Position numbers and translations under genes: made by a program | Assembly: GCF_003790525.1 (NCBI RefSeq) | Contig: NZ_CP033635.1 | Direction: 5' to 3' (one strand) | DNA: 64,000 nt | Source of the DNA: Escherichia coli | GTDB lineage: Bacteria; Pseudomonadota; Gammaproteobacteria; Enterobacterales; Enterobacteriaceae | The notes under the pieces: model-generated | The model's input: only the letters and a program-made list of their open reading frames with translations | Database searches by the model: none | Told to the model about the DNA's origin: nothing | Part shown: piece after piece, positions 2,253-53,432 of the stretch | Numbering within the stretch: the first letter of the stretch is position 1 | Layout of the letters: each line of letters opens with the position of its first letter

Positions 2253-3878
2253 TCAGATTACGTGCGGTGTGATCAGCACAACCAGAATGGTGTCATCGTC
2301 ACCGCTGTCAGTGCCGCCACCCAGCCCGAAGAATGCCGGGCTGCCGACGCCCTGGCGCACGGATTTGCTGCCGGACTGCCGGAATCCGCTGAGAATGACG
2401 GTCTGACCTGATTTCAGGTCGATGGTCTGGTTGATGGTTTTCAGGTCTACCGTGGGCACCTGTGCCCGGCTGCCGCCGCTCTCGAACACCTCAAAGGTGG
2501 GTTTGTCGGAGAGGTTCATGCTGAAGAGCAGCTGCAGGCTGCGCGCATCCGGCTGAATGAACGGCAGCAGGGTCATGTTGAAGCCGGTGGTGATGGTGGC
2601 GGCGTTCAGGGAGGTGCTGGTCCCGACGTTGGCCGTGGTGTCGGTGGTGACACCTTCGATATAGCCCTGCTGGCTGGCCACCTGCATGGGCACCGGCGTC
2701 ATGTTTTTGGTGACGGCGGAGTTCTGTGTGACCACGCTGACGGTGCCCTGACTGGAGAGCGCCTTCAGGAAGGCCTTCGAGCCGGTGAGCTTACCGTCCA
2801 CAATGGAGACGCCACTGGTGATGATGTCATCGGCGGCACTGCTGAATGCCCCTCCCAGCGTGAGGCCGAGACGTCCGTCGCTGAAGACGGCATTCCAGTC
2901 AATGCCGGCCTGGTCACGGCGGGTTTTTCTGACGCTGAGGACTTCCACGTTCAGCACCACCTGACGTCGCATCTCGCGGTTACGTGCCTCCACAAAACGG
3001 CTGACGGTGTCGAGGACCCGAGGGGTGTCGGTGACGGTGAGAAAGCCGGTGGCAAGCACCATCCGGCCGGTCCCGGGGGTCAGCATGGCACCGACGGCAT
3101 TTTTCAGGTCCTCATAGAGGGTGGACTTCATGTCGACCGTGGTGGTCTGGGTGTTGCTGGCCTCCCCGCTGAGGGTGCCGGCGTTACTGCCGGTACTGCT
3201 GCCGGATGAGGAGGAGGCGGTGCCGCTGACCACCCGGGCGTTGTAGGTCACCTGAGAGTCCATGTAGGTGACCGGGAAGGTGCGTGTCTCCAGCCAGTAA
3301 AAGGTGATGGCGCGCCGGTCACTGTCGTAACGGTACGAGATACCGAGCCGGGAGGCGACGGTATCCAGCAGCTGCCGCAGCCCGGTGGCGCTGAGTTCCG
3401 GCAGGACGGCACCGCCGCCCGGGGGGATGACCTGTGCGCCACTGCCGACGGCGGCCAGCGGCACCATGCCGTTCGGGTCCGGTGCGGGGATTGCGCCTGT
3501 CAGCTGCTGTGTGGGGCCGGTGGTGGCCAGCGCCTGCCAGACGTCGGCGGTGATGGTCACGGGGATACCGCAGCTTCCGGTGATGCGCTGGGCTATCTGC
3601 CGCAGGCTGATATCCCGGCGGGTGTTGATGATGATGGGGCAGCCCGGCAGGCTCTGGTGTGCGGGGCTGACGCTGACAGGGGAGGGGTTGATCCACTGTC
3701 GCGTGGTCTCCGTGACCACCGGCCGGGATTTACGGAGTTCGCCCGCGTGCCGGCGCGCTTTCTCCAGTGTGGCGGTGGCGTCTTTTTCCGTGTTGCTGAT
3801 ACGTTCGGCCGTACCGCAGCCTGACAGCAGCAGGGCGACGGCAGTCAGTGGCAGGAGCATGTGTTGTCTTTTTTTCAT
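2253..3878 (-). CDS. pilN: Type IVB pilus secretin lipoprotein PilN-like
   Basis: Start at 3878 gives MKKRQHMLLPLTAVALLLSGC (lipobox LSGC) preceded by an AAGGA RBS; C-terminus ...TILVVLITPHVI is secretin-like; about 541 aa. Confidence 0.7.
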   Translation of the reverse strand: MKKRQHMLLPLTAVALLLSGCGTAERISNTEKDATATLEKARRHAGELRKSRPVVTETTRQWINPSPVSVSPAHQSLPGCPIIINTRRDISLRQIAQRITGSCGIPVTITADVWQALATTGPTQQLTGAIPAPDPNGMVPLAAVGSGAQVIPPGGGAVLPELSATGLRQLLDTVASRLGISYRYDSDRRAITFYWLETRTFPVTYMDSQVTYNARVVSGTASSSSGSSTGSNAGTLSGEASNTQTTTVDMKSTLYEDLKNAVGAMLTPGTGRMVLATGFLTVTDTPRVLDTVSRFVEARNREMRRQVVLNVEVLSVRKTRRDQAGIDWNAVFSDGRLGLTLGGAFSSAADDIITSGVSIVDGKLTGSKAFLKALSSQGTVSVVTQNSAVTKNMTPVPMQVASQQGYIEGVTTDTTANVGTSTSLNAATITTGFNMTLLPFIQPDARSLQLLFSMNLSDKPTFEVFESGGSRAQVPTVDLKTINQTIDLKSGQTVILSGFRQSGSKSVRQGVGSPAFFGLGGGTDSGDDDTILVVLITPHVI

Positions 3879-3940
3879 GCAGAAATCCTTGTGTGAAACG
3901 TGAAAACAGTGAGCAGAGCAGGGAGGGCAGAAGCGCTTCG

Positions 3941-4012
3941 GGACTGAAGTCTGCGCGTGATGGCGATATATCCGCGGGACATGACCGCGGCCGGATATGC
4001 AGACTTCAGTCC
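3941..4012. promoter_or_regulatory. Nested inverted-repeat structure in pilM-pilN intergenic region
   Basis: Perfect 14-bp inverted repeat GGACTGAAGTCTGC (3941-3954) / GCAGACTTCAGTCC (3999-4012) enclosing inner inverted repeat ATATCCG / CGGATAT and CCGCGG palindromes. Confidence 0.5.
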
Positions 4013-4067
4013 ACAGGCTCCTCACACTGTGCGGGACAGCGAAGGTTAACGGTGCAGTGATGTCCCG

Positions 4068-4505
4068 CTAGTTGAAATAAACAAATGCGCTGTCAGGAAT
4101 GACGGACGGCACGCTGATACCGGTGTCCTGACCTGTGGTGTTCAGCAGTCGCCGCCCCTTCACCCGGCCTGCCAGCGCGGTTTTGTGGGTGATGTCTGCC
4201 AGCGCACCTGCAAGCCCCGGGCGGTCATCCTGCCAGACAAAGACCCGCTGTCCGGCGATGATATGGCGGGTACCGTATACCGGGCGGAAACCCGTGGCGG
4301 TGACGGGGAGCGTGCCACCCCCCGTGCGCTCAGCCGGATGGGTGTACAGCCGGTCGTTAATGCCGTTCATGAGGCGGACCATCTCCCACGCACGTTCACG
4401 CATCTCCGCCTGCTCGCTGTACACGGTGACCCGGTGGGTACTGCTGTTGTGAAACCAGGTCAGCGCCACGGTCAGGGCCATGACCAGGGAGAGCGACCAG
4501 CCCAT
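4068..4505 (-). CDS. pilM: Type IVB pilus protein PilM-like
   Basis: Start at 4505 (MGWSLSLVMALTVALTW, N-terminal hydrophobic) lies 2 nt after the pilL stop; 145 aa, same length as R64 PilM. Confidence 0.45.
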   Translation of the reverse strand: MGWSLSLVMALTVALTWFHNSSTHRVTVYSEQAEMRERAWEMVRLMNGINDRLYTHPAERTGGGTLPVTATGFRPVYGTRHIIAGQRVFVWQDDRPGLAGALADITHKTALAGRVKGRRLLNTTGQDTGISVPSVIPDSAFVYFN

Positions 4506-4507
4506 GG

Positions 4508-5233
4508 TCAGTCTCCCGGTCTGTCGCTGACGTGCACCACACACTGCGTGCTGTTGATGGCTGCATACAGCGGCGTCTGTGCGTCCTGATAGAGACGGAA
4601 GAGTTCACTGAGCGCGTGGCGGAACTCGCCGGTGAAATGCAGCGGCGCATCGATGCTGTAATTGAGTCCGGGGTTCTGCCAGGCCAGCTGCCAGGTGCCA
4701 CCGGCCTGACAGGGAACGGCGGCCACCCACTGCTCAAGACCGGCACGCAGCAGGGTTCCGCGGGCAAGAGTCCAGGTGGTCCGTGCATGCGCCGGTTGCG
4801 GCATGTTTGCTGATTTTTCCGCGGTTTTTTCCTGCAGACTGGTGGTGCCCGGGGTGGCCTGAGACGGACTGAACAGGGTGTTCCGCTCAATACGTACATG
4901 CTTCTTCTCCGTGTCGGTGATGGCGCGGAGCTGATATTTTTTCAGCATGCGTTCCGTAACGTAATTCCACTGGTCATTTCCCTTCCATGACACCGTGCGG
5001 GGCGGCCTGACATCCGGTGCAATGTCAAATGTCCATCCCGGCGGTATCAGTTGCTGCATGGCTTTTTTCAGTGATAACCCTTTACCGTCCCGGGGAATAA
5101 ATTTCAGTGCTCCCGGAGCGCTGCTGACCGTGGACGATGAGGGTGCACTGACCTGAGAAGGTGACGGTGCAGCAAAAAGTGGAACAGAAAATGCCAGCAG
5201 CGGCACAATAAGAAGTGGTTTCAGTGGTGTCAT
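4508..5233 (-). CDS. pilL: Type IVB pilus protein PilL-like (secreted)
   Basis: 241-aa ORF with signal peptide MTPLKPLLIVPLLAFSVPLFA; second gene of the minus-strand operon. Confidence 0.45.
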   Translation of the reverse strand: MTPLKPLLIVPLLAFSVPLFAAPSPSQVSAPSSSTVSSAPGALKFIPRDGKGLSLKKAMQQLIPPGWTFDIAPDVRPPRTVSWKGNDQWNYVTERMLKKYQLRAITDTEKKHVRIERNTLFSPSQATPGTTSLQEKTAEKSANMPQPAHARTTWTLARGTLLRAGLEQWVAAVPCQAGGTWQLAWQNPGLNYSIDAPLHFTGEFRHALSELFRLYQDAQTPLYAAINSTQCVVHVSDRPGD

Positions 5234-5285
5234 ATTATGGTCCTGTATCGCACATTTTTTGTGTTTCCTGAGCCTGTATCCGGTT

Positions 5286-22274: not shown

Positions 22275-22329
22275 CTCATGTTAAGTGCCTTTGCCGGATA
22301 ATATAAAAAGTTATCCGGCAAATTATTTT

Positions 22330-43633: not shown

Positions 43634-43718
43634 TGCCCCAAATGATTGAGCTTGTTTAATGACTGTGACCGGCTCTGAATGAAAATTTCTCCGACATTCC
43701 TGTCGGAGAAATATGAAA

Positions 43719-47700: not shown

Positions 47701-48077
47701 GACAATCTTCCTTGAGTAAAGTGTGGGAATATGTCACATGAGATGAGGAGAAAACAGCCGACAGGTGAGAATTCAGAATCTATAAAGGGGTATAGCGAAA
47801 AAACATTGCTTTAAAAAAGTATGTTTTCGGACATTCAATAAATAAATGGCGATATGCATCACAAATACAACAATAATCAAAATGTTGATTTTGTGATAAA
47901 CGTAACAAATACAAAGTTGACTTTAAAAATATCAACTTCATGTTGTTATTATTTAAGGTTTTATTATTTTTGTTCATGGGGTTTTTCTTCTCGCGTACCC
48001 AATTGCTTTCATTAAACCGCACGAGTATTTTATTTTTACCGCCGGACGGTACCCTAAAAATAAAATAAGGATAATTT

Positions 48078-52722: not shown

Positions 52723-53432
52723 AAATTGAATTAACGGTGAATGGGCTGAAGATACAGGCACAGTACCAGAACGAAGAGATTGAAAATGTACATAAACCGT
52801 TGCTGCACATGTTGGCGGCCTTACAGACGGTAAATCCGCAGCGGCGTACGGTGGTTTTTCTTTGCGCTCCGCCGGGGACGGGTAAATCTACCCTAACCAC
52901 CTTCTGGGAATATATCGCGCAACAAGACCCGGAACTGCCCGCTATTCAGACGCTACCGATGGATGGTTTTCATCATTACAATAGCTGGCTGGATGCGCAT
53001 CAATTGCGCCCCTTCAAAGGCGCACCAGAGACATTTGACGTTGCGAAACTGGCGGAAAATCTGCGCCAGGTCGTGGAAGGGGATTGTACGTGGCCGCAGT
53101 ACGATCGACAAAAGCATGATCCTGTTGAAGATGCGTTGCACGTTACCGCACCACTCGTCATCGTCGAAGGAAACTGGTTGTTGCTGGACGACGAGAAGTG
53201 GCGCCAGCTTGCGCAATTTTGTGATTTCTCGATCTTTATCAAAGCTCCCGCATCTGCGTTGCGGGAGCGTCTGGTGGGGCGCAAGCTGGCGGGAGGGTTA
53301 TCGCTGGCAGACGCAGAAGCCTTTTATGACCGTACCGACGGGCCGAATGTTCGCCGGGTGCTGGAAGAGAGTCTGCCTGCAAATTTGACCTTAATGATGA
53401 CCGCTACGGGTGAATATCGTCTGATGGATTAA
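52719..53432 (+). CDS. yggC: P-loop kinase-like protein
   Basis: 237 aa; Walker A APPGTGKST. Confidence 0.8.
   Translation: MKIELTVNGLKIQAQYQNEEIENVHKPLLHMLAALQTVNPQRRTVVFLCAPPGTGKSTLTTFWEYIAQQDPELPAIQTLPMDGFHHYNSWLDAHQLRPFKGAPETFDVAKLAENLRQVVEGDCTWPQYDRQKHDPVEDALHVTAPLVIVEGNWLLLDDEKWRQLAQFCDFSIFIKAPASALRERLVGRKLAGGLSLADAEAFYDRTDGPNVRRVLEESLPANLTLMMTATGEYRLMD

Follow-up and report, generated by a model that had tools for sequence, protein, structure and literature searches.

A lineage-restricted structured element downstream of pilM in Escherichia coli integrative elements and IncI2 plasmids

Intercistronic hairpins that serve in mRNA processing or stability are familiar from pilus and phage operons and their like, among them papB-papA processing in pap, RNase III sites such as T7 R1.1, and rpsO-pnp. 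Here we describe an element downstream of pilM that resembles these in being a long irregular hairpin with an asymmetric internal loop, located on the sense strand between cistrons and built on a basal duplex of about 22 bp. It differs from them in the unusually strong sequence conservation of its stem, its three-way junction with a tetraloop arm and in its restriction to one pilM clade.

Other described structures are comparable. REP/BIME and ERIC sequences are likewise imperfect palindromes in the intergenic gaps of operons, where such repeats can stabilise the upstream mRNA; our element, however, is not repetitive, with one copy per integrative element (ICE) or plasmid. HK022 put and the Bacillus EAR are cis-acting structured RNAs of long operons, as our element may be, and share with it a conserved sequence that implies a macromolecular partner, but it matches neither in sequence or structure. 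Neither Rfam nor the literature that could be searched on the oriT, inverted repeats, pilM-pilN region and promoters of IncI2 plasmids yielded any description of the element. What is new is the lineage-restricted element itself; a structured intercistronic mRNA element is of a known general kind.

The inverted repeat and its setting

The stretch of DNA analysed (the window, 64 kb) is 99–100% identical to a chromosomal island, ICE_A, which 36 of 5,426 complete E. coli genomes carry. Inserted beside a tRNA-Phe gene, near yqgA-speC, the island has an R64-type pilL-pilV operon with its shufflon, along with integrases, a UvrD-like helicase and a relaxase that matches NCBIfam TIGR03760 (PFGI-1 class, MobH-like) with 193 bits, above the cutoff. 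Known insertion sites of ICEEc2 are pheV and pheU (PMC11537424). In strain AR_0089, which carries the same ICE, the pilT-like lytic transglycosylase gene of the pil operon, outside the window (L001 5340–5816), is annotated as a pseudogene with an internal stop.

Between pilM and pilN, a perfect inverted repeat is formed by GGACTGAAGTCTGC at 3941–3954 and GCAGACTTCAGTCC at 3999–4012, its 14-bp arms separated by a 44-nt spacer. Nested in the spacer are ATATCCG (3968–3974) with CGGATAT (3992–3998), and CCGCGG twice (3972–3977 and 3985–3990). The window has no second perfect inverted repeat with arms of 14 bp or more and at most 100 nt between them; windows simulated under a first-order Markov model held a mean of 0.03 such repeats, and 2.5% of them had at least one. 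According to the RefSeq annotation of identical E. coli DNA, the pilM-pilN gap measures 189 bp and no other gap between the listed pil genes exceeds 60 bp. The original prediction, made from the window's letters, had described the repeat, its nested palindromes and its place beside the secretin gene in the only sizeable gap of the operon, and all of this was borne out. RNA folding, one of the checks it had proposed, gave a strong fold relative to shuffled sequences (z = −3.9 sense, −3.5 antisense). The conserved element reaches past the repeat at 3941–4012 to span 3929–4024, and in the window's lineage further pairing extends to 3906–4030 (Table 1).

Table 1. Positions of the element, its helices and the neighbouring cistrons in the window
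Feature	Position	Strand	Basis
Conserved structured element (P0, P1, P2 with apical hairpin, P3)	3929–4024	−	Covariance model, 85 bits
P0 5' strand AGGAGCCU, pairing with 3929–3937 (AG-C-GCUUCU)	4015–4022	−	Fold; two double compensatory changes versus other lineages
P1 5' arm, sense strand, GGACUGAAGUCUGC (right arm of the repeat)	3999–4012	−	Sequence, repeat search, pair counts
P1 3' arm, sense strand, GCAGACUUCAGUCC (left arm of the repeat)	3941–3954	−	Sequence, repeat search, pair counts
P2 (ATATCCG/CGGATAT; as RNA AUAUCCG/CGGAUAU) enclosing the lineage-specific apical hairpin CCGCGG-UCAUGUC-CCGCGG	3968–3998	−	Repeat search, variants
P3 mini-hairpin AUCGCCAUCACGC in the 13-nt asymmetric junction strand	3955–3964	−	Variant comparison
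Outer closing helix GCUCUGCUCACUGU, lineage-specific, pairing with 4017–4030	3906–3919	−	Repeat search, fold
HP1, separate GC-rich hairpin GCGGGACA ... 22 nt ... TGTCCCGC, overlapping the pilM stop codon	4031–4068	−	Repeat search, fold
pilM, type IVb pilus biogenesis protein, upstream cistron	4068–4544	−	ORF list, RefSeq annotation of identical DNA, translation
pilN, PilN-family secretin lipoprotein, downstream cistron; ATG at 3878, lipobox LLSGC	2253–3878	−	ORF list, RefSeq annotation

Two observations on the window stand apart from the element. The annotated pilM start is a GTG at 4544, which overlaps pilL by 37 nt (4508–4544); an alternative ATG at 4505 gives a 145-aa protein that aligns with other PilM proteins from residue 1, so ATG 4505 may be the true start. 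The chromosomal backbone part of the window holds four more perfect inverted repeats (22290–22322, 43685–43712, 48026–48067 and 53202–53291), with arms of 12–13 bp and spacers of 4–66 nt, which are likely terminators or REP-type elements.

Distribution and conservation of the element

Short-word blastn gave an 87-nt match of 74% identity in E. coli plasmids of about 60 kb, comprising 515 PLSDB records. These plasmids were typed IncI2, MOBP and MPF_T, and many carry mcr-1. Their layout is pilM, the element, a hypothetical gene and the virB1-virB11/T4CP cluster, with pilN only beyond the cluster. Short and long forms of the IncI2 locus occur: the element follows the pilM stop directly in the short form, and in the long form it comes after a small 53-codon ORF. 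This ORF (MKLKNSYTSTPAFLSPKSQAEAERLKHFADMVYMNCATTLSLGTKNNSPSTKE), situated between pilM and HP1 plus the element (L002 4137–4298, minus strand; L081 388–549), is unannotated in the records and missing from the short form (L079 and L080).

A second ICE lineage, ICE_B (L073), occurs in 18 E. coli chromosomes; its PilM is 43% identical and its layout of UvrD, DUF1187, pilL, pilM, gap and pilN is the same. A decayed relative of this lineage (L078) also carries the element: in this E. coli assembly (3001–5235), pilL, pilM and pilN are fragmented and an insertion lies inside HP1, while the element is intact at 94 bits. Further copies were found in the IncI2 mosaics L061, L076 and L077, in the IncI2 variants L079–L081, in a Salmonella IncI2-like contig (L085) and in L084, where the order is NusG-x-pilL-pilM-element-pilN. 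In L083 an IncI2-like pilM allele is followed by pilN, and the copy there is degenerate (20 bits, 4 of 14 P1 pairs broken), an example of how the sequence looks once the element is being lost. An IS1A insertion in the IncI2 plasmid pFORC_081_2 (L082 500–640) took out pilL, pilM and the element's 5' arm, making this plasmid a naturally occurring deletion mutant, in which the ability to transfer could be instructive.

Every intact copy was on the sense strand after pilM, one per ICE or plasmid. The ICE_A and ICE_B copies lie at the pilM-pilN junction, and the sampled plasmid copies lie after pilM, except in pFORC_081_2. A covariance model of the element likewise found exactly one copy per host element and no second copy in the window, and short-word blastn placed it at one site per genome (at most two) and nowhere else in 5,426 E. 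coli genomes.

Other pil operons had no covariance-model match. Eight other pilM-bearing plasmid classes (Erwinia, two IncK2/Z, Yersinia ruckeri pYR4, Serratia entomophila, Salmonella Anatum, Enterobacter hormaechei and S. diarizonae) had pilM-pilN gaps of 13–31 bp and no match, as did 17 Enterobacterales genome loci fetched through PilN (gaps of 7–48 bp) and the pilM lineage of L074 and L075 (a 30-bp gap). The PilN-based search returned no close relatives of the ICEs, just operons without the element. Thus, the element is not general to R64-type pilLMN operons and is limited to one pilM clade. Most pil operons work without it, so any role must be accessory. The original prediction had proposed conservation across homologous loci as a check; the element is absent from most pil operons but kept in one specific pilM clade, and hence its absence from the others does not make it meaningless. 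It likely arose once between pilM and pilN, with the IncI2 plasmids later gaining the virB cluster downstream of it.

The IncI2 layout bears on another part of the original prediction, which had offered attenuation of secretin expression as one function. A strong intercistronic hairpin does sit directly upstream of pilN in the ICEs and L084, where it might act as an intrinsic terminator or attenuator reducing pilN transcription. However, neither HP1 nor the element has a U-tract after it in any lineage, a scan of 3600–4400 returned 0 terminator-like sites and no promoter-like site on either strand, and in IncI2 plasmids what comes after the element is a hypothetical gene and then the virB cluster instead of the secretin gene. 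We therefore regard termination or attenuation as very unlikely.

The element stands out from the genes around it. Between IncI2 plasmids and the mosaic L076, pilL is 98% identical and pilM gives no blastn alignment (about 60% identity in nucleotides and 41% in amino acids), whereas the element is 83% identical, and near-identical once its apical part is left aside. For the next gene, identity is about 73% across no more than 78 nt, and from virB1 onward it is back at 95%. When ICE_A and ICE_B were compared by blastn, nothing but the element aligned in the region from the 3' part of pilL to the conserved part of pilN. Such conservation amid a divergent pilM and next gene makes it an island of purifying selection in a hypervariable cassette.

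The cassette comprises pilL, pilM and the 5' third of pilN (2253–5233 of the window; also L073, L076 and L003), and pilM is 53–60% identical in nucleotides between lineages, against 86–98% for the flanking genes. The mosaics L061, L076 and L077 had pilM, the element and the next gene swapped for a version closer to ICE_B (PilM 62% identical in amino acids). These patterns suggest diversifying selection or recombination acting on the pilus proteins.

The same comparisons speak to whether the element is a non-functional relic, for instance a miniature mobile element that is no longer active, a repeat of the REP kind or a scar left by recombination. Most pil operons lack it, one decayed copy is known, and it lies at the point where IncI2 plasmids have the virB cluster between pilM and pilN. 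The repeat search reported no direct repeat flanking it, although its old age would erase a target-site duplication. Against a relic stand its single copy per host element and its absence elsewhere in the 5,426 E. coli genomes, conservation far above that of the neighbouring coding DNA, compensatory changes (see below), and its position inside the exchanged tract of the IncI2 mosaics, not at the edge. A relic of this kind is barely credible as an explanation. A dispersed repeat (REP, BIME, ERIC or MITE) was ruled out by blastn of 5,426 E. coli genomes and 72,556 plasmids together with the covariance-model scan.

Wider searches returned similarities of other kinds. A pattern scan of viral contigs gave 0 matches. 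A metagenome pattern scan gave mostly unrelated sequences with the same 11-mer arms and no homology outside them. One of these, from an organism in a groundwater metagenome, has tandem 78/132-nt units in its nuoC-nuoD gap, made of the small palindromes GCGGACTGAAGTCCGC and GCAGACTTCAGTCTGC (L050 3731–4288; also L048, L051, L053, L056, L062, L069 and L071); these palindromes match the element's arms over 14–15 nt, perhaps by chance, and are probably a REP-like repeat. In Citrobacter werkmanii (L026 211–331, minus strand), a weak covariance-model match of 21.6 bits may be a distant relative or chance. The match is an inverted repeat, GGGACTGATGCCTG...CAGGCATCAGTCC, with GGAAACG and a hairpin resembling a terminator after it, and lies on the opposite strand of an R64-like pil locus, about 2.7 kb from pilN on its upstream side. 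Finally, the PGLMSAL codons of Serratia/Erwinia-type pilM read CCGGGACTGATGTCTGC (L008 2768, L018 2770 and L019 2827), one mismatch from the arm GGACTGAAGTCTGC, a likeness that may be coincidence or a hint at the arm's origin.

Fold, covariation and strand

Nine distinct variants share a three-way-junction fold on the sense strand. At its base is P0, a helix of 7–8 bp formed by GGGGAUUCU and AAAAUCUUU in most variants and by AGGAGCCU and AG-C-GCUUCU in the window. A 2x3 internal loop separates P0 from P1, which has 14 bp, the second pair being formed only in the window's variant and unpaired in all others; P0 and P1 together give a basal stem of about 22 bp. P2 is AUAUC/GAUAU, extended differently in each lineage and topped by an apical hairpin. 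P3 is a 2-bp mini-hairpin within the junction strand of 11–13 nt, which starts AUCGC. In eight variants P3 is GC-UACG/UGCG-GC, with the loop UACG (UGCG in L084) forming C(UNCG)G, a tetraloop family that is exceptionally stable in RNA. P3 of the window's variant has a 6-nt loop and is not a tetraloop.

The apical hairpin has arms CCGCGG/CCGCGG in the window, CACAU/AUGUG in IncI2, AUGU/ACAU in ICE_B, GGAAUA/UAUUCC in L084 and UCU/AGA in L076. Its sequence is unrelated between lineages, yet it is paired in each. The spacing of the repeat arms varies from 37 to 44 nt across the variants. In most lineages HP1 lies between the pilM stop codon and the element. The window's HP1 is not homologous to those of the other lineages, which have the hairpin AUCCCC..GGGGAU in that position, and L084 has no HP1. 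A conserved switch by alternative pairing of HP1 and P0 was rejected, since the two do not overlap in the window's lineage and L084 lacks HP1 altogether. Conserved masking of the downstream ribosome-binding site was not seen in the folds.

In the model-based alignment, standard pairs filled 93.5% of 261 pair cells, compared with 22–54% when partners were slid by 1–3 columns. Double compensatory changes occurred at three pairs, two in P0 and one in P2 (U-A to C-G in L085). This level was reached by 2 of 500 column shuffles, a figure that is not a probability, the covariation amounting to few independent events in about five lineages. P1 showed no double compensatory change despite deep divergence. 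Where P1 changed on one side only (A to G at two positions, A/G at a third), a G·U pair is retained each time on the sense strand; on the antisense strand the same changes are A·C mismatches. A pure structural stabiliser would not need the P1 sequence to be kept without double changes, and so the RNA reading has to assume a specific partner.

The strands differ in the same direction over the whole element. Of the 261 cells, 244 pair in the sense orientation and 215 in the antisense, and in P0 alone the proportions were 87.5% and 52.8%. The RNA minimum free energy was lower on the sense strand in eight of the nine variants, by 2.5–10 kcal/mol. The exception was the window's variant, in which the strands fold equally well (sense −46.0, antisense −46.6 kcal/mol). 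With DNA parameters both strands fold equally, so the asymmetry exists under RNA rules only.

The original prediction had also proposed a protein-binding site. Both arms are conserved in sequence without covariation, and each is nearly self-complementary (a quasi-palindrome GGACT-NN-AGTCC), as would suit regulator sites in a double-stranded DNA operator or a cruciform. However, the 37–44-nt arm spacing shifts the helical phase, and plain double-stranded DNA binding explains neither the sense-only G·U pairs nor an apical hairpin whose pairing is kept while its sequence changes. No promoter-like site lies nearby and no regulator was identified as common to all hosts. Taken together, these points make an operator improbable.

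The structure might also form in single-stranded DNA, all hosts of the element being conjugative. The transferred strand might form the hairpin during conjugation, as a priming (single-strand initiation) signal or another structure read by a conjugation or replication protein. In IncI2 plasmids the relaxase gene is on the strand opposite pil and virB and, by analogy with R64, RP4 and F, the transferred strand would have the sense sequence. The ICE relaxase gene and pil genes have the same relative orientation as in IncI2, so the transferred strand would carry the mRNA sequence in IncI2 and probably also in the ICEs. Moreover, the element folds as single-stranded DNA with z of about −4, and a conserved stem sequence with an asymmetric junction is typical of hairpins read by DNA enzymes. 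It thus resembles ssi and Frpo, which are likewise bulged hairpins on conjugative elements. Unlike these, however, it lies outside any recognised leading region in IncI2 and has no −35/−10 in its stem. Furthermore, both strands fold equally under DNA parameters, the three P0 G·U pairs and the UNCG tetraloop are features of RNA, the element always fills an intercistronic slot beside a stop codon, about 30 kb separate it from the IncI2 relaxase gene, and it has no blastn similarity to F, R100 or ColIb-type plasmids. On balance we judge a role in the transferred strand unlikely, though not negligible.

Several specific DNA structures were rejected. The element shares with oriT inverted repeats its conserved arms and its presence on conjugative elements, but oriT was rejected because the relaxases are of different, unrelated families (MobH/PFGI-1 in the ICE, MOBP in IncI2) and the relaxase gene is distant; in the IncI2 plasmid pLD67-1-MCR1 the element lies at 54.4 kb, and the gene presumed to encode the relaxase, with no annotation beyond LPD7 domain protein, lies at 18–22 kb. 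An Frpo-like single-stranded promoter was rejected, there being no promoter-like site on either strand and the transferred strand apparently being the coding strand for the genes on either side rather than their template. In the aligned variants, inspection revealed neither the R''/R' core of an integron attC site (RYYYAAC/GTTRRRY) nor the dif-like 11-6-11 arms of a Xer-type hairpin.

Known RNA classes gave no match either. An Rfam 15 cmscan of 3500–4500 on both strands, at E values up to 10, returned only chance-level matches of at most 17 bits, far below gathering scores. A hammerhead-like core (CUGA..GAAA) was considered and dropped, with no Rfam ribozyme match.

A possible role in processing or stability of pil mRNA

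Of the functions offered in the original prediction, a structured element of the sense-strand transcript is favoured by the compensatory and G·U changes and by an apical hairpin that varies yet stays paired. The comparisons establish a conserved hairpin that is favoured on the sense strand, sits between cistrons, occurs in single copy and is under selection. In general terms, we infer that the element acts as RNA, with somewhat better than even confidence. Its particular function is a more tentative matter. By analogy with the intercistronic hairpins of pilus and phage operons, it may be a cis-acting structured mRNA element that determines processing or stability and uncouples pilL-pilM from the genes downstream, a proposal to which we give a little under an even chance.

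Under such a mechanism, an RNA of about 95 nt would be transcribed within the polycistronic pil mRNA (pil-virB mRNA in IncI2) and fold into the three-way junction, with its long P0/P1 basal stem, a P2 whose apical hairpin is free to vary and a small P3 tetraloop hairpin. A trans-acting factor, from the host or the mobile element, would then recognise the basal stem and junction; that these are kept in both sequence and pairing while the apical arm is free suggests recognition by a specific partner. The effect would most likely be post-transcriptional: the element would be a site of the RNase III or RNase E type for endonucleolytic processing, a protective hairpin that determines stability, or both. 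In this way the pilL-pilM segment of the mRNA could differ in abundance or lifetime from the segment downstream (pilN onward in the ICEs, virB onward in IncI2). In structure, P0 and P1 resemble an RNase III site, which comprises about two turns of double-stranded RNA, often with an internal loop, on the transcribed strand; together they give about 22 bp with a 2x3 internal loop on the sense strand.

A structured RNA on the sense strand, early in a very long operon (>20 kb in IncI2), might instead act on RNA polymerase, as a processive-antitermination or pause-modulating RNA of the HK022 put or Bacillus EAR kind that allows read-through of the long downstream operon. Its conserved sequence suggests a specific partner, conjugation operons often need antitermination, and related pil operons have NusG paralogues upstream of them. 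However, the element has no similarity to any Rfam antiterminator family, L084 has a NusG paralogue and the element together, and no downstream terminators that need overcoming were identified. We consider antitermination a fairly remote prospect beside the proposed role in processing or stability.

More than 500 sequenced IncI2 plasmids, the chief carriers of mcr-1, have the element, as do two ICE lineages found in avian and human extraintestinal E. coli, and it is the best-conserved non-coding sequence in a fast-evolving pilus gene cassette. Conservation of both its structure and its stem sequence implies that it has a specific partner and that selection maintains it for some function in how the conjugation apparatus is expressed. 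Should it have no measurable effect, it would still be a neat case of a structured intercistronic motif confined to certain lineages. Were it to govern when, or in what proportion, pilus and secretion-system components are made, conjugation would have a new point of post-transcriptional control. More speculatively, and with low confidence, it could represent an undescribed class of regulatory RNA, or a dual RNA/ssDNA hairpin, read by a dedicated factor and, in ICEEc2-like islands and epidemic IncI2 mcr-1 plasmids, adjusting how the type IVb mating pilus is balanced against the secretion machinery encoded downstream. If that were true, mutation of the element would alter conjugation efficiency, and the element would offer a cis target for blocking the spread of colistin resistance.
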